64,000 bases of DNA, taken from contig JASGJI010000019.1 in assembly GCA_049840815.1 (NCBI GenBank), positions 401,407 through 465,406 of the forward strand, read 5' to 3'. Made by a program: the position numbers and the translations under genes. The DNA is from Thermomicrobiales bacterium (GTDB lineage Bacteria; Chloroflexota; Chloroflexia; Thermomicrobiales; UBA6265). The notes beneath the pieces are model-generated. The model worked only from the letters and a program-made list of their open reading frames with translations, did no database searches and was not told the DNA's origin. This document shows, one piece after another, positions 13,659 through 24,533 of the stretch; position 1 is the stretch's first letter, and each line of letters opens with the position of its first letter.

Positions 13659-14942
<1,284 letters not shown>

Positions 14943-15020: not shown

Positions 15021-15665
15021 TCAGGATCGCGAACCGTTGAGACCGGAGCCGCCGGGAATGGCAAGCTCGGCGGGATACAGCACTTCGTCGATCAGGCCGT
15101 AGTCCCGGGCCTCCTCGGCGGTCATGTAGTAGTCGCGCTGGGTGTCGGCCTTCACCTTCTCGAAGGTCTGGCCGGAGTGGACGGCGAGGATCTCGGTGAG
15201 GGTGTTGATGACCGCGAAGGTCTCCTTTGCCTGCACTTCGAGATCGGGGATGTTGCCCCGGAAGCCGCCGGACCCCTGATGGATCATGATGCGGGAATTC
15301 GGCAGGGCGTAGCGCTTGCCATGCTCACCGGCGGCGAGGAGGACGGCGGCCATGCTGGCGCCCATGCCCATGCAGAAGGTCTGGACATTGGCGCGGACCA
15401 TCCGCATGGTGTCGTAGATGGCGAGACCGGCGTAGACGGCACCGCCCGGGGAGTTGATGTAGAGCTTGATGTCCTGTTCGGGATCGTCGTGGTCGAGGAA
15501 GAGCATCTGGGCAATGATGAGGTTGGCGACCTGGTCGTCAACCGGGGTGCCGAGGAAGATGATGCGATCCTTGAGCAGCCGGGAGTAGATGTCGAAGGCG
15601 CGTTCGCCGCGATTCGTGCTCTCGACGACCATCGGCACGAGATTCTCGATCTTCGGGATTTCCAT
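15021..15665 (-). CDS. clpP: ATP-dependent Clp protease proteolytic subunit ClpP
   Basis: ORF 15021..15875 trimmed to ATG 15665 ([17 protein letters not shown]...). It has RIIFLG, INSPGG and GMGASMAA (catalytic Ser context). Confidence 0.95.
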
Positions 15666-16196: not shown

Positions 16197-17492
16197 TCAG
16201 TCGCCGCGCTGGCGCGCGCTGGGAACGTCCTCACAGATGATGGCCCATGGGCGATCGGCGGAGCGAGTCATCGCGATCCAGTATGCATTCCGACCCTGCT
16301 TCGCCAATCTCTTGCGCAGGCGCTTTGCGATTGCATCGACGTCCCCCGCGAGTCCGCGCCGCCGAATGTCGATCGCCCCGGCGTCAAGCTCCGTCAGCGT
16401 TCGGCGGAGCGCCTTCTCGTCCCACGGCAGCGATGCCACGATGCGGTGGGAACGTGCGAAGGGGGAACCCGCCGGTCGCGCACCGACGAGGAAGGCGATC
16501 TGGCGGTCGATCGGCGTCGCATCGAGGGTGGTGGCCAGCGACTGGACGAGTCCGGCGCGGGTGATGGCGGGATTCGGGTCATGCAGCCACAGGCCGACTT
16601 CGGGGGTGACGAGTGGACGGGTCTCGGCGTCCTGCGGATCGTCCCCGAGGCCGGTCATGCTGTGGGCCACGCCATCCACGATCACCGTCGCCCGGCGAGG
16701 CGCCGTGGCGAGCGCGGGCGACCAGAGTACGGCTTCCTTCAGGTCGGCATCAACGGCGATCAGCTCGAGTTCCCATCCCGCTGGAATCGTCTCGTGGTCG
16801 ATGCCGGGCGCGAGCTTGATCCCGACCTTCGGAACGCGATCCGCCAGGCCGACGCACCAGTCCAGCGGTGGCTCGGTCTCGCCGTATGCGAACCGGCCTC
16901 CGGTATCGCGGCGTGCGGGGTCGATGAAGACGCCGTCGGCATCTCCCAGGTTGGCTGTGCGGACATCCGCGAGACCCCAGGCAAGCGAGCCGTCCGAAGC
17001 GACGAGCCGTGCATTCGTGAGCGCCATCGCCAGGTGATCCGGATCGAGGTCGACGGCGGTCAGCTGATGCACCCCAGGCACGGCAGCCAGCGCCATCAGG
17101 TCACCGCCGATCCCGCAGCAGAGGTCGACGATCGAGTTGCACCCGGTGAAGCGTTCGGCACGCCAGCGGGCGACCGCTTCGGAGCTCGCCTGTTCGTACC
17201 CGGCGCGGGTGAAGAGCATCCCCCCTGCCTGCGAGAACCGGGATGATGCCCGCGTCCGCAACTCGTGCAGTGTCATCGCCGCCGCGACGACCTCCGGCGC
17301 GAACCGCTTGCGCAGATGTGTGGCCGTGGACACGGGATCTCCGGGCGACAGGTCCGCAAGCGCAGCGAGTGCGTCCAAAGCCTCCGGACTGGCGAGCAGG
17401 GAGACGAGGTCGGATGTGGGCGTGGCGTCGGGCACCGGGGTTCCTTGCAGGCACGAGGAAGGGCCGGGGATATGCTCACCCGACCCTTCCAC
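16197..17492 (-). CDS. class I SAM-dependent methyltransferase (about 430 aa, THUMP-like-type family)
   Basis: ORF 16197..17492 (GTG start). It has the SAM-binding motif VDLCCGIGGDLMALA. The start is uncertain. Confidence 0.7.
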   Translation of the reverse strand: MEGSGEHIPGPSSCLQGTPVPDATPTSDLVSLLASPEALDALAALADLSPGDPVSTATHLRKRFAPEVVAAAMTLHELRTRASSRFSQAGGMLFTRAGYEQASSEAVARWRAERFTGCNSIVDLCCGIGGDLMALAAVPGVHQLTAVDLDPDHLAMALTNARLVASDGSLAWGLADVRTANLGDADGVFIDPARRDTGGRFAYGETEPPLDWCVGLADRVPKVGIKLAPGIDHETIPAGWELELIAVDADLKEAVLWSPALATAPRRATVIVDGVAHSMTGLGDDPQDAETRPLVTPEVGLWLHDPNPAITRAGLVQSLATTLDATPIDRQIAFLVGARPAGSPFARSHRIVASLPWDEKALRRTLTELDAGAIDIRRRGLAGDVDAIAKRLRKRLAKQGRNAYWIAMTRSADRPWAIICEDVPSARQRGD

Positions 17493-17529: not shown

Positions 17530-20067
17530 CTAGTCCTCGTTGTCCGTCTTCACGGCGTCGGCAGCCTTCTCGGCAGCATCCTTCGCCGCATCCGCAGCGG
17601 CGGAGCCGACATGATGCGCCGTGCGTGGGGCGCGGTACCCGGAGCGCTCGGCGGCTTCGGCGTCCGGGAACCAGACCTCGGCGATGGTTCGCTCGTACGA
17701 CGAGGATTCGGGCGTGTGGTAGATGCCGGAGTTTGCGTTGCCCTTCACCAGCCAACCGTTCGGCGCATCTTCACCTTCGACGGCGGCGATCCAGTCAACT
17801 CCCTCCGTCTCGTCGGGACCGTGTCCTGTCGCGTGATGGGCCTCGGCTTCCTCGCGAATCACGTCCTCTGGCTCATCGGACACAGCGGCAACGGCGGCTT
17901 CCGCTGCATCCTGCGCGTATGCGACTGCCTGCGCCCCGGCATGATGGGCCGTGTGGGGGGCGCGGTACCCGGATCGCTCGGCAGCTTCGGCATCCGGGAA
18001 CCAGACCTCAGCGTGAGTGCGTTCGTAGGATGCCGATTCCGGGGTGTGATAGATGCCGGAGTCGGCGTTGCCCTTCACGACCCAGCCGTTCGGCGCATCC
18101 TCGCCCTCGACGTCAGCGGCCCAGTCGACGCCCTCGGTCTCGGCGGGTCCATGTCCCTTAGTTGGACGATCGTCGGAGGTGTCCTGCGTCGTGGCGCTGG
18201 TGGGGGCCTCCGCTGTCAGCGGTGTTGCGCCCTCGATGGTCGGGGGGACGCCATCGATCGCGGCCTGGGCGTTGGCTGCCGTCGACTCGACATCGCCCGA
18301 TGTCCATGCGCGGGCCAGATCGCCAGCTCCCGCCAGCTTGCCGGTCAGGGCGTTCCCGGCAATGGTGCGATCCGGATTGGTGGCATCCGCAACGACCTCG
18401 TCGGCATCTGACAGCGAGCCGGAGACGGCGTTCTCGGCGATCGATGCATCGCCGGAGAGCGGAGCCGGCGTCATGGCCTGGACAGCGTCGTCGCCTGAAA
18501 CACCCTCATCGGCGGACCCATCCTGCACGACCTCATCGGCTTCGTCAAGGTTGTCCGAAACGGCGTCGGCGGCGATGGTTGCGTCCCCGGCGTCCGTCGC
18601 GCCATCGAGGTCGGGAGCAGTGAGGTCCACGTCGCCCGTATCGCCAGGCGCGTCTGGCGAGTCGACGATTTCCTCCGCATCGACCAGGGCCTCCTCGGCG
18701 GCAGATTCGTCGATGACGTCGATGCGGGTGTCCCGCGATTCCCCGATCGTATCAGGGGTGGGGGAGTCGGCAGTTGGCAACTCGGCCATCACGGCGTCGT
18801 CAGAGGCGGGCGTGAAGCTGGCGATTGATGCGTCGTCGTCCTGGTCCGCAGGGGAATCCACCACGGGGTGTTCCGCCGGCGTGCCAAAGGCGTCGATGTC
18901 GGTCGCGTCGGTGGCATCCACGAGGGCGGCGAAGAGGTCGGATTCGGCCTGTTCGCCGTCATCGCCCGCAGGCTCCTCAGCCACGGCGTCCGCGGCGGAA
19001 TCCAGCGGCATGGCGGCGGATTCGTCTACCTCATAGTCGAGATCGGCGATCGTCTCCTCGTCGGCCAGGCCTTCGAAGGTGTCGCTCGCACCCTCGATCG
19101 TGACGTCGGAGGCATAGATCTCGGCCGGAAGCAGCGCGTCGTCGTCCGGGATGCTGTCGAAGAGATCGTCATCCTCATCGTCGTGGCCGGCAACGACGAC
19201 GAACCGTGACGCCGCGAGGTCGGTGGAGTCGGCTGGCGTCTCGGACGCCTCGGCGACGGGCTCTGCCGGTATGGTGTCGGCTTCACTGGTCGTGTCAGCG
19301 GCTTCGGGGTTGTCAAGGAAATGCTCCACCTTCGCGCGGAGATCCTCGAAGAAGCCTTCCCGGTGCTCCGCATGCGGTGTCTCGACATCGGGGGCCAGCT
19401 CACTGCGGTCATCCAGGCCCGGTGTCACGACGACCTCTGGCGTGAATTCGGAGTCGCTGGTTCCTGACTCCGAACGCGGCTCGTTCAGCAGCGGGGACGT
19501 CGCCATCTCGGCGGACCCGGCCAGCGGAAGGTCCGCGCTGGCCTCCGGCTCGATGGCCGGGCTGACCGTGCGGACGACACCGTTGATGTCTGGATCGGAG
19601 ACGTACAGCTCCTGCGCGAAGGCCTCTGCTTCCAGCGCCTCCGGGGATTCGTCGGCGGCCTCGTCGAGGAACGCGGCATCCTCCGCCTCGACGGACGCAC
19701 GCTCGTCGTCGCTCATGATGGCGTCGGCATCAGTATCGACATCCGGTGCATCGGCGTCGGGCACGATGCCGTCTTCAGCGTGAATGGAGGCCATCTCCTC
19801 GTCGCTGAGAACCGGGTCAGCGGCGGGTGTCGCGTCCTGCGGTGCATCGAGGAAGGCGTCCACGCGCTCCTTCATGTCATGGAAGAAGCCTTTGCCCCCG
19901 GCAGGCTCCTGGGTGGTCTCCGTGGCAAGGTCGGCATCGGGCAGGTCCGCAACGGGGGTGTTGATGCCGTCGTGTTCCTGGGTGGTCGTCTCCGCGACAG
20001 GTGCCGCCGGGACATCGGGGATCGTGGCGTTGACCTCGACGTCGGGCTGCGTCGCGTCGACGTCCAC
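17530..20067 (-). CDS. large acidic repeat protein, downstream (C-terminal) reading-frame segment
   Basis: ORF 17530..20067. It is extremely D/E/A/T-rich, has two amphipathic GFF.D.+.+V..FLD.P motifs and two C-terminal ~72-aa KGN..SGIYH...GYR modules. Its frame stays protein-like upstream to about 20290 without any ATG/GTG/TTG, so it is probably the continuation of the 19872..21620 ORF. Confidence 0.7.
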   Translation of the reverse strand: MDVDATQPDVEVNATIPDVPAAPVAETTTQEHDGINTPVADLPDADLATETTQEPAGGKGFFHDMKERVDAFLDAPQDATPAADPVLSDEEMASIHAEDGIVPDADAPDVDTDADAIMSDDERASVEAEDAAFLDEAADESPEALEAEAFAQELYVSDPDINGVVRTVSPAIEPEASADLPLAGSAEMATSPLLNEPRSESGTSDSEFTPEVVVTPGLDDRSELAPDVETPHAEHREGFFEDLRAKVEHFLDNPEAADTTSEADTIPAEPVAEASETPADSTDLAASRFVVVAGHDDEDDDLFDSIPDDDALLPAEIYASDVTIEGASDTFEGLADEETIADLDYEVDESAAMPLDSAADAVAEEPAGDDGEQAESDLFAALVDATDATDIDAFGTPAEHPVVDSPADQDDDASIASFTPASDDAVMAELPTADSPTPDTIGESRDTRIDVIDESAAEEALVDAEEIVDSPDAPGDTGDVDLTAPDLDGATDAGDATIAADAVSDNLDEADEVVQDGSADEGVSGDDAVQAMTPAPLSGDASIAENAVSGSLSDADEVVADATNPDRTIAGNALTGKLAGAGDLARAWTSGDVESTAANAQAAIDGVPPTIEGATPLTAEAPTSATTQDTSDDRPTKGHGPAETEGVDWAADVEGEDAPNGWVVKGNADSGIYHTPESASYERTHAEVWFPDAEAAERSGYRAPHTAHHAGAQAVAYAQDAAEAAVAAVSDEPEDVIREEAEAHHATGHGPDETEGVDWIAAVEGEDAPNGWLVKGNANSGIYHTPESSSYERTIAEVWFPDAEAAERSGYRAPRTAHHVGSAAADAAKDAAEKAADAVKTDNED
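17611..17826 (-). repeat. coding repeat, copy 3 of the KGN..SGIYH...AGYR module
   Basis: GHGPDETEGVDWIAAVEGEDAPNGWLVKGNANSGIYHTPESSSYERTIAEVWFPDAEAAERSGYRAPRTAHH. By hand alignment it has 37 mismatches in 216 nt, ungapped, against copy 2. Confidence 0.9.
17941..18156 (-). repeat. coding repeat, copy 2 of the KGN..SGIYH...AGYR module
   Basis: GHGPAETEGVDWAADVEGEDAPNGWVVKGNADSGIYHTPESASYERTHAEVWFPDAEAAERSGYRAPHTAHH. Confidence 0.9.
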
Positions 20068-21620
20068 CGTCGTTGGCGTGTCGGTCCTGGATGCGACAGC
20101 AGCGGCTCCCGCGATGGCTGCGCCCGTGGCGACGGTCGTGGTCGCGTCGGGGGTTGCGTTCTCGTCCGCCGGCTTGTCGAAGAAGGTGGTGAGGCGATTA
20201 CGCAGTTGGCCGAAGACGCCTGCCTTCGCTGCCGTCGCCGCTGGAGAGGCCGAATCCGTGCCGGAGTCGGCAGGGGCAGGGTACTCGCCGGTTCGTTGGC
20301 AGGAGTTGCCCCGAGTGTCGTGGCCGCGAAGGCCGGAGCGGCCGGAATTGCCGGCGTTGTCGTCTCAGGGGCTGCGGAGGGGACGGTGTCGGGCTCGGTA
20401 GCGACGACGTCCGAGGGCTCAGTCAGATTGAAAGAGTCGTCGCTGCTGAGATCGCCCGGCAGTTCGACAGGAGGCGCGGCATACTCCTCGTCCGCATCTT
20501 CGGATGCCTCCTCGGCGGCGTTGGCAAGCACGTCCCCGTCCTCTGGCTCGTCGCCGTCATCCTCGAAGCCTTCGAAGGAGTCAGATGGGAGGTCGGTGTA
20601 GCCGTGATCGTCGTACTCCTCCGCTTGCGCGGCGACTTCGGCGGCCTCGGCAGCGAGATCGGGGTCGGGCGAGTCGCCGATGGCGGCGGCGTCGCTGAGT
20701 GCCGTGGTGTCGGCGGCCCCTGAAGCCTCCGCCGACGTCGATTCGGTGGCGTCGCTCTCAGGCATCACGACGATGCCCCCTTCGCTGGCGGCGGGGATAC
20801 CTGCGTCAGAGAGGTCGAGGCCGGGCACCTCGGCGGCGATGGCGGGTGTTTCGATCGTCTCGTCCGGAGCATCGGACGCCGCGATCGCCGTGGTTGCGAT
20901 CGTGGCCGCAACCGGCGCGGCGGGCGGTGTGTACGGCGTCTCCCCGGTGGGCGGGGTGATGGGGAGTTCCGGATCAGGTTGGCCGAAATCGACCGCTGGT
21001 GTGCTGGCGTCCAGATCCGCCTGCGTGCCGCTCCAGGCGTTGGTCACACGTCCCTGAAGATCGGTGAAGGGGGTTTCGGAGGCAGCGACTCCCTGTCCGA
21101 GGTCGTTCTTTGTGGCGGAGACATGAACGGCGTCACCACGCACATCGACGATCTGGGCGGCCATGATGGCGATGGTCTTCGAGAAGAAGCGGCCGACGCG
21201 GACAGTGAGGACCTCATCGGTCCCATCCTCGACCTCGCCGATGCGCTCCCCATCAGCGCCGATCACGGCCATGCCCTCGGCGATGGTCCAGGAGTCGGTG
21301 CTCCCACTCGTCGCTGCGGCCGTCGCCGCCGGTGTGGCATCGGCTGCGACGTTCGGGACGATGGCCGCACCTTCGGGCAGGCTGCTCCAGGTGTCGCTGG
21401 TGGCGACATCCGACGTGACGTTGAGATGCACGGCCCCGCTGTCGATCCCCGCGATGGCGGAGACCGGCACGTAGTACTCCTTCGTCATGAAGAGGAACCC
21501 GTGCTTTACGATGAGGGCGCTTCCGGCGGACCCGGTGACTTCGCCGATCTTCTTGCCGTCGCTGCCGAGGACCTCCTGGCCCTCACGCACGACCCACGCT
21601 GTGGTGTCCGCGTCTGACAT
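19872..21620 (-). CDS. large acidic repeat protein, upstream (N-terminal) segment with two PRC-barrel/DUF2171-like domains
   Basis: ORF 19872..21908 trimmed to ATG 21620 (GGGGAGG 6 nt upstream). It has two copies of V.EG..V.G.DG..IGEV......L.V......K...V....I..... .VH(L/V). The sequence after about 20285 turns R/P/S-rich (out-of-frame look), consistent with a frameshift into the next ORF. Confidence 0.7.
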   Translation of the reverse strand: MSDADTTAWVVREGQEVLGSDGKKIGEVTGSAGSALIVKHGFLFMTKEYYVPVSAIAGIDSGAVHLNVTSDVATSDTWSSLPEGAAIVPNVAADATPAATAAATSGSTDSWTIAEGMAVIGADGERIGEVEDGTDEVLTVRVGRFFSKTIAIMAAQIVDVRGDAVHVSATKNDLGQGVAASETPFTDLQGRVTNAWSGTQADLDASTPAVDFGQPDPELPITPPTGETPYTPPAAPVAATIATTAIAASDAPDETIETPAIAAEVPGLDLSDAGIPAASEGGIVVMPESDATESTSAEASGAADTTALSDAAAIGDSPDPDLAAEAAEVAAQAEEYDDHGYTDLPSDSFEGFEDDGDEPEDGDVLANAAEEASEDADEEYAAPPVELPGDLSSDDSFNLTEPSDVVATEPDTVPSAAPETTTPAIPAAPAFAATTLGATPANEPASTLPLPTPARIRPLQRRRQRRQASSANCVIASPPSSTSRRTRTQPPTRPRPSPRAQPSREPLLSHPGPTRQRRWTSTRRSPTSRSTPRSPMSRRHLSRRRPPRNTTASTPPLRTCPMPTLPRRPPRSLPGAKASSMT

Positions 21621-21982
21621 TGCTCGCCTCCCCTGATGCCGGGCGCCGATGGCGCATAGTCCCGAACGACGTGTTTGCGAACGATCCGGATACCGAATCC
21701 CCTCCGGTGCGTGGTGTTCCGGGTGAACTGGAACCGTCGTCGCGCCGGCACGGGTATTGCCTGCTTCTACTCTACCTGAGCCATGGCGTTTTCGATAATC
21801 ACCGGAAGCGAAATCCATGAGCTTTTCGCGGAGATCGTCGGCGTGAGTGGCCGAATGATGGCCTGATCCCTTGCATTTCATGGGCCACGCCTCCTTTGCC
21901 TCGCACAAACAACGACCGCACCCGGAAGTCCCGGATGCGGTCGTCTTTTGTCGTAGTTGCCGTGGCCAGGAAGGCGCGAGGA

Positions 21983-23719
21983 TTACTCCTCGGAGACGGC
22001 AGCCTCGGCGGCGGCCTTCGCAGCGCTTGCTGCGGTCTCGCCCACCTTCGGCATGTTCTTCGGCGCGCGGTAGCCAGCGCGCTCGGCAGCCTCGGCGTCC
22101 GGGAACCAGACCTCAGCGACGGTGTTCTCGTACGCCGGGGATTCCGGGGTGTGATAGATGCCGGAATCGGCGTTGCCCTTCACCACCCAGCCGTTCGGCG
22201 CATCCTCGCCCTCGACGGCGGCGACCCAGTCGTTGCCCTCGGACTCGGACGGGCCGGCGGACTTGGCCTTGCGGGCGGGCTTCGCGGCGGGGGCCTCTTC
22301 GGTCTCGGCGGACGCATCGGAGACGATCTCGGCATCGACGATGCCGTCGTTCTCGGTCTCGATCGCGACCGGCTCCGGAGCGACCCAGCCGTTGATGACC
22401 GCGCCCTTGCCCTCGGTGGCCTGCTCGATCAGGTGATCCTGGAGCTTGCGGTCGAACAGCTCGCTCTGGAGCATGTTCTTGAAGTAGTCGGACTTGTAGA
22501 TCTCGCGGAGGCGCTGGGCCTGGGCCTCGCCTTCCTCCCCGGAGACGGCGCCGGCGTTCGCCCCGATCAGGCGTTCGATCTCGGCGTCGATGTCCTCGTC
22601 CGTGACCTCAACGCCTTCCTTCGTCGCGTACTCGCGCAGCAGGAGGGAGTTGCGCAGGCGGCGCTCCGACTCCGGGAAGAGGGAGTCGTGCAGGCTGGCC
22701 TCGGTCTGGCCACGGGATGCGAGGAAGGCCTCGAACGGCATGCCGTTACGGGCGGCGTCCTGCTTGAGGTGCTCCAGCTGGTGGTGCACTTCGTCGTGGA
22801 TCATCTCGTGAGGCAGGTCGATCGGAGAGGTCTCCGCCAGCTTCTCGATGATCTGGTTCACGATGTCGTTGCGGGCGTCGTTGGTCTTGCCCTGGTGGAT
22901 GTCATCGCGGATCTGCTGGATGAGATCGTCCAGCGACTCGGCGTCCGCGACATCCTTCGCGAACTCATCGTCCAGCGCCAGGAGCTCGCGCTCCTTGATG
23001 CCCTTCAGGGTCACGGTATAGGAGAGGGTCTTGCCGCGGATGGAGGAATCGGCGGTCTCGTCGTCCTCCCCGAAGGCGATATCGAAGCTGGCGGACTCAC
23101 CGACGTGCAGCTTCTCGATCTCTGCCTTCAGCTGCGCAAGCAGGTTCGTCTCGCCGAGCACGAAGACCGCGTCCTCGATCGGCTCCTGGAACGGCTCGCC
23201 GTCATCCGTCACGGCGTAGTCGACCGTCACCTGGTCACCATCGACCGGGGTGCGCTCTTCCTTGGGATCGGCCCACGGGCTCTGGGAGCGCTGCAGGCGG
23301 TCGATGACCTCCTGCACGTCCTCGTCGCTGACGGCGGCATCGACCGGCTCGACGCGAATACCGGCGTAGTCGCCCAACTCGACCGTCGGGTAGACGGCGA
23401 CGGTGACGACGAAGTTGAGCGGCTCGAAGTCCTTGATCTCGACCTGAGGATCACCGACCGGCACCAGGCTCTCCTGGGAGAGGGCTGCGCGGTAGAGCTT
23501 CTCCATCAGTTCGTCGGCGGCCTCGCGGGCGAAGACATCCGGCCCGTACATGCGCTCGATCATCGCGCGCGGGGCCTTGCCCTTCCGGAAGCCCGGAACC
23601 TGGATGTCCTTGCTCACCTTGCGGACGGCGACCTGCAACGCCTCCTGGTACTCGGCGTCTTCGGAGGTAATGTCGAGCACGGCGATGCTGCCGCTATTCC
23701 GTTCAACCGAAAGTTTCAC
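21983..23719 (-). CDS. tig: trigger factor (peptidyl-prolyl isomerase) with non-canonical C-terminal extension
   Basis: ORF 21983..23854. The likely start is GTG 23719 (VKLSVERNSGSIAVLDI...), which matches the canonical Tig N-terminus. PGFRKGKAPR is the ribosome-binding signature. ATG 23779 is an alternative start. Confidence 0.9.
   Translation of the reverse strand: MKLSVERNSGSIAVLDITSEDAEYQEALQVAVRKVSKDIQVPGFRKGKAPRAMIERMYGPDVFAREAADELMEKLYRAALSQESLVPVGDPQVEIKDFEPLNFVVTVAVYPTVELGDYAGIRVEPVDAAVSDEDVQEVIDRLQRSQSPWADPKEERTPVDGDQVTVDYAVTDDGEPFQEPIEDAVFVLGETNLLAQLKAEIEKLHVGESASFDIAFGEDDETADSSIRGKTLSYTVTLKGIKERELLALDDEFAKDVADAESLDDLIQQIRDDIHQGKTNDARNDIVNQIIEKLAETSPIDLPHEMIHDEVHHQLEHLKQDAARNGMPFEAFLASRGQTEASLHDSLFPESERRLRNSLLLREYATKEGVEVTDEDIDAEIERLIGANAGAVSGEEGEAQAQRLREIYKSDYFKNMLQSELFDRKLQDHLIEQATEGKGAVINGWVAPEPVAIETENDGIVDAEIVSDASAETEEAPAAKPARKAKSAGPSESEGNDWVAAVEGEDAPNGWVVKGNADSGIYHTPESPAYENTVAEVWFPDAEAAERAGYRAPKNMPKVGETAASAAKAAAEAAVSEE
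22058..22240 (-). repeat. coding repeat, copy 1 of the same module, at the C-terminus of trigger factor
   Basis: EGNDWVAAVEGEDAPNGWVVKGNADSGIYHTPESPAYENTVAEVWFPDAEAAERAGYRAPK. Positions 22140-22217 are 76/78 identical to 18035-18112. Confidence 0.9.
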
Positions 23720-24533
23720 GCTGGACGCATCCCTTCTCGTGGTGGTGCTCTGTGCTTGCGACCAGGAGCGGCGAATCATCGCCGGCCTGGCTGCTTCGCT
23801 GTCCGCTTGACGGGGGAGCCACCCGGCTCCCGGCGATGACGTCAAGCGGAGCATGCATGCCCGATGCTGGTTGGCTGGATGACGTGACGGGATCGTAGAG
23901 CGTTCGACGCGAAGTCGTCCGTCCGTGACCGCTCAGTCACGGCGTCGAATCGGGAGCGATCCGGACTGTCATGCCGTGGTCACAATGAATGTCCGCCAGC
24001 CAGCGGCATTTCCAAAGGCGGAGTATACCACTCGACGGAATGTGCGCACCGGACTGTTCCGGCCAGTCAAAAGCCGGGAATGGCGGGCATTCTCTCCATG
24101 ATCGGAGATGCAATGATTGCATGTACGGAGTGCCCGAACAAAGCGTACGTTCACATTGTCACCCCCATACTTGGATGGTATCGTCGGTGCAGGCATCGAT
24201 CCGGAGCGTTGAGGACCCAATGAGGGGCTCCTCGCTGGTGGATGTACGGACGATCTTTACACCGGCGGGCTGACGCGGCATTCGACCGAGCGCCGCGATT
24301 CCGGTGGAAGCGTTTCGGCGGGATGACTGTTCGATCACTTTCAGGATGTTCGGGATCGGTGGCAAGCGGGTCGATGGTCCGTCTTGCCCATGTGGTGCCT
24401 TCGGATGGACACGGTTGCGGAGGATGGAGCTCCCCGATCGTGCGAGGGCCTGCATGCGGGAGTGGCTGCCACTGCGGTGGTTGTCGCTCCGGTCGGTTTC
24501 GGACATCACGGTTGCATCAGGAGGGAAGGCGCG

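Follow-up and report, generated by a model that had tools for sequence, protein, structure and literature searches.

A trigger factor with a leashed C-terminal sunset domain in Thermomicrobiales, and its possible role as a docking module

The window analysed here, a stretch of 64,000 nucleotides from contig JASGJI010000019.1 of a Thermomicrobiales bacterium, encodes on its minus strand a trigger factor (Tig) with a long C-terminal extension. Trigger factor is the first chaperone encountered by nascent chains, and it is known to touch the ribosome at one weak site only, on uL23. An earlier, sequence-only reading of the locus had claimed that the extension ends in a small add-on domain, which it believed to be the so-called sunset domain. 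The tig coding sequence occupies positions 21983-23719 of the window (578 codons plus a stop at 21983-21985) and lies within an intact minus-strand open reading frame (ORF) at 21983-23854. The translation from the GTG at 23719 is 578 residues long and has the C-terminus AAEAAVSEE. The GTG had been taken as the start in the sequence-only reading as well, and we retained it, since homologues open with M/VKLxVER and a relative shows no conservation of the 45 codons upstream; for the latter reason the ATG at 23854 was rejected. A Shine-Dalgarno-like element, AAGGGA, is found at 23730-23735, 10 nt 5' of the GTG.

The body of the protein is that of a canonical trigger factor. The TIGR00115 equivalog model matches residues 14-430 with 323 bits (cutoff 180.2), and the identical public protein at NCBI is named 'MAG: trigger factor [Thermomicrobiales bacterium]', MAG standing for metagenome-assembled genome. 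The ribosome-binding N domain (residues 1-142, positions 23294-23719, minus strand; PF05697, E = 2.4e-40) carries the GFRKGKAP signature at residues 43-50, and P42, G43, F44, R45, K46, G47, A49 and P50 are invariant across 87 homologues. It is followed by an FKBP-type peptidyl-prolyl isomerase head (residues 155-239, positions 23003-23257, minus strand; PF00254, 30.6 bits against a cutoff of 21.1) and the C-terminal arm domain (residues 262-432, positions 22424-22936, minus strand; PF05698, E = 2.3e-27, 96.5 bits, cutoff 22.7). The arm domain is helical in our AlphaFold2 model of Tig, with a predicted local distance difference test score (pLDDT) above 90; the model was built with the 87 homologues and has a mean pLDDT of 86.7. 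All three domains are thus shared with canonical trigger factors (TIGR00115; E. coli type, ~432 residues), as are the GFRxGxxP signature and the clpP-clpX neighbourhood. The minus-strand gene order is tig, a PRC-barrel/sunset gene, a THUMP-like methyltransferase gene, clpP and clpX, which identifies this as the housekeeping tig; in contrast to the canonical locus, two genes sit between tig and clpP.

What sets this Tig apart from canonical trigger factors is the part beyond the arms, consisting of a leash, a sunset domain and a tail helix. As the Pfam Trigger_C match stops at residue 432 and TIGR00115 at residue 430, the extension amounts to ~146 residues; the sequence-only reading was right about its presence and too short in its estimate of about 130. 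The interval that it had singled out, 21986-22400, corresponds to residues 441-578, and the sequence that it quoted, NDWVAAVEGEDAPNGWVVKGNADSGIYHTPESPAYENTVAEVWFPDAEAAERAGYRAPK, to residues 496-554. Immediately after the arms, a lineage-conserved ordered segment, ATEGKGAVINGWVAPEP (residues 433-453, positions 22361-22423, minus strand), was delineated from the alignment and the AlphaFold2 model; T435, G437, G439, A440, V441 and N443 show little or no variation among homologues, and the segment has a pLDDT of 82-92 up to about residue 450. The chain then continues as a disordered acidic leash (residues 454-494, positions 22238-22360, minus strand), for which pLDDT falls below 50 at residues 454-488 and 492-494. 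A net charge of -12 over residues 444-507 bears out the acidic linker described previously. Measured over 81 homologues, the stretch separating the sunset core from the Tig body spans 44-134 residues (median 78); it is enriched in A, E, D, G and T, and its median net charge is -18.

The leash leads to the sunset, or ADA_N-like, domain (residues 495-556, positions 22052-22237, minus strand), whose core as defined by NCBIfam spans residues 513-554 (positions 22058-22183, minus strand). The predicted fold covers approximately residues 496-555 at a pLDDT of 82-90, with strands at 498-499, 513-516, 521-523 and 537-539 and a helix at 542-547. The domain comprises ~59 residues, and there is no cysteine anywhere in residues 495-578. 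It finishes 24 residues short of the stop, and an Ala-rich acidic tail follows (positions 21986-22051, minus strand), with a predicted helix at residues 560-577 and a pLDDT of 65-72. The tail is at least 19 residues long in 64 of 81 Tig homologues, and tails of the same type also trail the sunset domains of the ribosomal protein bS6 and of the protein encoded next to tig.

The name that the sequence-only reading had given to the domain was confirmed by profile searches. The NCBIfam 'sunset' model NF051437 matches over its full length (model positions 1-42 of 42) with 75.2 bits, against a cutoff of 27, and E = 3e-21, and PF27542 (named 'ArfC') is precomputed on the identical public trigger factor protein. 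The signature residues of the family (K, G, N, S, H, Y, T, E, F, A, G) are all present in the Tig copy, each being 92-100% conserved among 438 distinct instances: K514 100%, N516 95%, S519 96%, H523 99%, Y530 92%, T533 97% and E536 93%. The Tig copy therefore has the K-G-N..S..YH..Y..T.AE..F...A..G signature of the described sunset/PF27542/ADA_N-like family as well as its C-terminal placement. It differs from the described family in its host protein and in the addition of a conserved N-flanking strand (DWV) and the Ala-rich tail helix.

A resemblance to the Ada N-terminal fold without the cysteine ligands had also been proposed; our own evidence for the link is weak, and the homology is already in the literature. 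The Ada zinc-binding model PF02805 (cutoff 23) stays below threshold on Tig, whether the whole protein (19.6 bits) or just its extension (22.6 bits) is scored, and passes it, with 27.4 bits, on the copies of the neighbouring protein. The homology to the N-terminal domain of Ada (N-Ada) was published by Pei et al. (Proteins 2025), who defined the ECOD X-group 'ADA_N-like domains' and included in it the C-terminal domains of Cutibacterium acnes RplD and of ArfC, with ComEC among the other hosts (PMC12353581). The zinc sites have deteriorated in the L4 and ArfC versions (PMC12353581), and the Tig copy likewise lacks zinc ligands. In a domain-only structure model (pLDDT 82.6), the top PDB matches by Foldseek were the N-Ada structures 1u8b and 1wpk; they are weak (E = 0.4-0.7) and align over 46-49 columns at a root-mean-square deviation of 2.4-3.2 Å. 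A comparison with an Ada N-terminal sequence by hhalign aligned only the C-terminal half, at a probability of 30%, placing ..VWFPDAEAAERAGYRAPK.. against Ada residues 53-73, with Ada Cys69 facing P553 and Cys72 facing M556. By an alignment made by eye, His523 may occupy the position of a zinc-ligand cysteine of Ada. A profile search of PDB sequences with the sunset domain retrieved C. acnes uL4 and did not retrieve Ada. Compared with the E. coli Ada N domain (PF02805; 1U8B, 1WPK), the Tig domain shares the C-terminal motif ..F....A..AG(F/Y)R; it has neither the Cys4 zinc site nor the methyl-acceptor cysteine, is located at the C-terminus, is net acidic and has no helix-turn-helix or methyltransferase domain attached to it.

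To place this architecture among trigger factors, we considered the best 120 matches from a Tig homologue search of ~5.8 billion clustered proteins. PF27542 is found on 113 of them (47-100% identical, 549-690 residues), and those with names are labelled as Thermomicrobiales, Chloroflexota or Chloroflexia MAGs. The sunset cassette on Tig is thus lineage-wide in Thermomicrobiales and related Chloroflexota. The fusion is already numerous in public databases, where these proteins are annotated only as 'trigger factor', with no function attached to the extension, so that its routine occurrence does not refute the sequence-only reading. The sunset domain itself, its relationship to Ada and its presence on ribosomal proteins are already known. 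A sunset-bearing trigger factor, of which the sequence-only reading was not aware, was not found described in the literature searched, and trigger factor is mentioned neither in PMC12353581 nor in the NCBIfam models that score on Tig.

The sunset core (47 residues) is free of gaps in 81 of the 87 aligned Tig sequences, and the linkers are variable. There is no stop or frameshift before position 22400, and the same frame is kept in the 81 aligned homologues. Against the orthologue of a related MAG (L001), whose Tig is 83% identical, the domain region shows 16 synonymous and 5 non-synonymous codon changes, with 2, 4 and 18 differences at codon positions 1, 2 and 3, respectively; this bias indicates that the region is translated and constrained. 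In the comparison with a 62%-identical orthologue, the domain evolves faster than the Tig body, non-synonymous changes affecting 27 of its 63 codons against 139 of 443 in the body. A minority of close relatives lack the sunset domain; an acidic C-terminal extension is retained in them at a length of 33-64 residues. These relatives include complete genes (518-residue clusters) on contigs of ~200 kb (up to 203 kb), which suggests either secondary loss or stepwise gain of the domain.

Downstream of tig, a terminator-like hairpin with a U-rich tract was identified by folding at 21905-21951 (minus strand; dG -38.4 kcal/mol). A 15-bp GC-rich hairpin is followed by UUGUUUGU, 34-80 nt past the tig stop, with a z-score of -5.19 and none of 200 shuffled sequences folding equally well. 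The hairpin was not picked up by the consensus terminator scan, and Rfam and tRNA scans gave no matches in the window. Two antisense ORFs, at 21871-22395 and 21896-23839, were rejected as shadow frames of high-GC DNA with Arg- and Pro-rich translations.

Beyond Tig, the sunset profile matches 4950 representative clusters (50% identity) at E <= 1e-3, of which 1578 reach E <= 1e-10. Proteins with 2-5 copies are frequent, and most of the best-scoring members have theirs on low-complexity linkers. In 255 of 265 family proteins, no more than 40 residues separate the last copy from the C-terminus. A genome scan with a narrow domain alignment returned 7 loci, from Thermomicrobiales, Mycobacterium and Propionibacteriaceae. 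NCBIfam has sunset-variant models for the ribosomal proteins L17 (NF051448), L4 (NF051449), L20 (NF051450) and S2 (NF051451) and for ArfC (NF051433). On Tig, the four ribosomal-protein models give a domain-only match (51-68 bits against cutoffs of 280-710); taking the five models together, the C-terminal ~90 residues align with 51-74 bits against cutoffs of 100-710, and none is passed. No NCBIfam sunset-variant model scored for Tig, S6 or L22.

Among the best 150 matches to the sunset profile are four uL22 proteins from Acidimicrobiia, two bS6 proteins and Tig fragments, as well as DUF2171/PRC, DUF308, fasciclin, SNase and BON proteins. The Acidimicrobiia uL22 holds two sunset copies. A search with bS6 yielded 46 bS6-sunset proteins, one of them labelled Thermomicrobiales, and their genes lie in canonical rpsF-ssb(-rpsR) operons. 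In Chloroflexota, bS6 often shows the same succession of acidic leash, sunset domain and Ala-rich tail as Tig. The rplQ gene of Tsukamurella also holds a sunset domain, and ArfC-type membrane proteins combine an N-terminal transmembrane helix with 5 copies. Overall, the sunset-variant ribosomal proteins are laid out like Tig, from body to acidic or low-complexity linker to C-terminal sunset domain, and their hosts sit at the ribosome surface. In contrast to them, Tig is a cycling, non-stoichiometric ribosome-associated chaperone, and it belongs to Chloroflexota rather than Actinomycetota. Tig carries a flexible, conserved C-terminal sunset cassette common to ribosome-surface proteins.

The C. 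acnes uL4 extension is a clear sunset domain (E = 5e-16; PDB sequences 8CRX and 8CVM, chain e). It is without density in the 70S cryo-electron microscopy (cryo-EM) maps (PMC10085706; PMC12353581), from which we conclude that the domain is flexible and, at least in purified particles, tethered to the ribosome rather than docked on it. No ribosome chain was found among the Foldseek matches of the domain model.

Nucleases form a further group of hosts, represented by a DNA/RNA non-specific endonuclease of Enterococcus and a thermonuclease of Sinorhizobium; together with the ribosomal proteins, and with ComEC as listed in PMC12353581, they agree with the earlier description of the hosts as secreted or nucleic-acid-associated proteins. 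The nucleases of the Sinorhizobium fredii plasmid (L011, 1027-1683) and of Enterococcus raffinosus (L010, 730-1650) have a hydrophobic N-terminus, are probably secreted and finish in a sunset-like end. These two may represent intermediate forms that link Ada-type domains with a zinc site to domains devoid of cysteine. The sunset copy of the rhizobial nuclease has two cysteines (CPIKGN...WFCDE). A tblastn search of phages with the domain returned only 'membrane' proteins of Clostridium phages, and fold matches in BFVD were small unnamed phage proteins; both were uninformative on function.

The gene that follows tig encodes a giant protein (positions 17530-21620, minus strand) in which N-terminal DUF2171 and PRC-barrel domains are followed by ~900 residues of acidic, low-complexity sequence and, at the C-terminus, by two copies of the sunset domain (17935-18168 and 17605-17841, minus strand). 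The gene is split by a frameshift near 20265-20300 into two overlapping ORFs (19872-21908 and 17530-20067). Its orthologue is a single gene of 1151 residues in L001 and is contiguous in L005; either the assembly is in error here or the gene is a pseudogene. A motif of 16 residues, G(F/V)F..(L/M)(R/K)..(V/L)..F(L/F)D, occurs three times in the giant protein (GVFGQLRNRLTTFFDK at 20173-20220, GFFHDMKERVDAFLDA at 19843-19890 and GFFEDLRAKVEHFLDN at 19309-19356, minus strand) and is also present in the L005 orthologue. Between the giant gene and clpP (15021-15665, minus strand) lies the gene for a THUMP-like protein with a class I methyltransferase domain (16197-17492, minus strand), which probably modifies RNA; clpX follows at 13659-14942 (minus strand). 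The order from tig to clpX is kept in L001 and, minus the sunset gene, in L002.

The three sunset copies of the window resemble each other closely. Their DNA similarity is limited to a cassette of ~180 nt with sharp borders; as proteins they are 85-90% identical, and they use the same codon at 61-77% of conserved residues. For the Tig copy against the two copies of its neighbour, amino acid identity is 85-87% and codon identity 71-77% at conserved residues. By comparison, codon sharing is 61% between distant orthologues and 76% between close ones. Very recent gene conversion was rejected as the sole cause of this likeness, since codon identity is at the level of orthologues. Across proteins, the 46 bS6 sunset copies have a median best identity of 0.78 to a Tig copy, compared with a median of 0.55 among bS6 copies and of 0.64 among Tig copies, the genome of origin being known in this comparison for the closest clade only. 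A single-linkage cluster at 75% identity mixes 74 Tig and 24 bS6 copies. Sunset copies thus cluster across host proteins and not by host; concerted evolution, cassette shuffling and co-evolution with a shared partner are all possible for this likeness.

We propose, with a probability of roughly 40% and from comparisons of sequences and predicted structures, that the cassette serves as a docking module on a leash, through which Tig would gain a second attachment near the ribosome, with an RNA backbone as the favoured partner; an anchoring role had been put forward in the sequence-only reading as well and is plausible. The cassette fused to the housekeeping Tig combines an acidic disordered leash with a sunset domain of the zinc-less, Ada-N-like kind and a tail helix rich in Ala. 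In this proposal, the sunset domain would dock onto one partner common to all of its hosts. On Tig, it would provide a long-reach attachment beside the canonical contact of GFRxGxxP with uL23 and would keep the chaperone concentrated near translating ribosomes and other sunset-bearing components, while leaving its chaperone chemistry unchanged. The leading candidate for the partner would be the phosphodiester backbone of ribosomal or messenger RNA, contacted by the invariant polar set K514, N516, S519, H523, Y530 and T533. The N-Ada domain binds DNA. An RNA backbone is favoured on the strength of the homology to Ada, the fusions to nucleases and ComEC and the invariant K/N/S/H/Y/T set.

Several observations weigh against this proposal. 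The sunset core is net acidic in 81% of the 438 distinct instances (median -2), which is unfavourable for RNA binding, as is the strongly acidic leash. That the uL4 domain leaves no density in purified ribosomes speaks against its being stably docked on the ribosome that carries it. Furthermore, positions that do not belong to the invariant set co-vary between host proteins; this is more in keeping with a protein partner, or with self-association, than with an invariant backbone. Finally, the close relatives without the domain indicate that it is dispensable for Tig function.

The acidic core, the acidic leash, the missing density and the co-varying residues outside the pocket all favour a different explanation, in which sunset domains would bind each other or a single lineage-specific protein scaffold and so form a multivalent protein network. 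Single-copy clients, such as Tig and the ribosomal proteins, would be linked to multi-copy scaffolds, ordering ribosomes and Tig in space, for example at the membrane or in clusters. We regard this explanation as less likely than the docking module. Most of the best-scoring members have 2-5 copies on low-complexity linkers, and candidate scaffolds are at hand: up to 5 copies occur in membrane anchors of the ArfC type and two in the PRC giant beside tig. The copies do not cluster by host, and the identity between the Tig copy and those of its neighbour is not accounted for by very recent gene conversion. In the window and in L001, tig directly adjoins the two-copy gene; this adjacency is lost in L002. 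Moreover, the lineage assignment of distant copies is partly circular, as their origin is known for the closest clade only, and the secreted members (nucleases, Cwp27 and an LGFP protein; PMC12353581) would require another partner.

A broader form of the network would have the cassettes act as 'stickers' of one multivalent system in both Chloroflexota and Actinomycetota, networking ribosomal proteins of both subunits, Tig, ArfC-type anchors and giant acidic scaffolds of which the PRC-barrel protein beside tig is an example. We consider such a system unlikely. If it did exist, the translation and chaperone machinery would be organised in space, for example through ribosome clusters, membrane tethering or condensate-like assemblies, and the lineage-wise co-variation of the copies would reflect co-evolving sticker surfaces.

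The cassette could also be a passive appendage with no specific ligand, serving as an entropic bristle, a solubility tag or a guard against proteases or aggregation. The leash, being long, acidic and variable in length, would suit such a role, as would the Tig relatives that retain the acidic tail alone and the invisibility of the uL4 sunset domain in cryo-EM. On the other hand, the polar residues are near-invariant over ~440 instances and ~4950 representative clusters, the domain is under strong purifying selection, and it is reused on nucleases and membrane proteins, all of which makes a passive function rather improbable.

Another possibility follows from the homology to N-Ada, for which the ECOD curators suggested a role of ADA_N-like domains in sensing alkylated nucleic acids (PMC12353581); on Tig, the domain would then report RNA or DNA alkylation at the ribosome. 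The type found on Tig and the ribosomal proteins is devoid of cysteine and hence has no zinc site and no methyl-acceptor thiolate, the zinc sites of the L4 and ArfC versions have deteriorated, and no DNA-repair or regulatory output domain is attached, so that we hold such a sensor to be very improbable. That an error of sequencing or assembly joined tig to a small downstream ORF, or that the tail is untranslated, can practically be dismissed: the window does come from a MAG and its next gene is frameshifted, but the same in-frame architecture recurs in 113 of the best 120 homologues from many independent assemblies, substitutions are biased to third codon positions and a terminator-like hairpin follows the stop at 21983.

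In annotation resources, rules for sunset variants exist for L4, L17, L20, S2 and ArfC, and none scored for Tig, S6 or L22. Tig is non-essential and easy to assay, and it offers a tractable experimental entry to a widespread orphan domain of ~4950 clusters at 50% identity. A bacterial order has put on its trigger factor the same leash-mounted domain that is found on at least six ribosomal proteins. This reuse suggests that ribosomes of Chloroflexota and Actinomycetota, phyla which include Cutibacterium and relatives of Mycobacterium, are surrounded by a further, as yet unstudied level of organisation.

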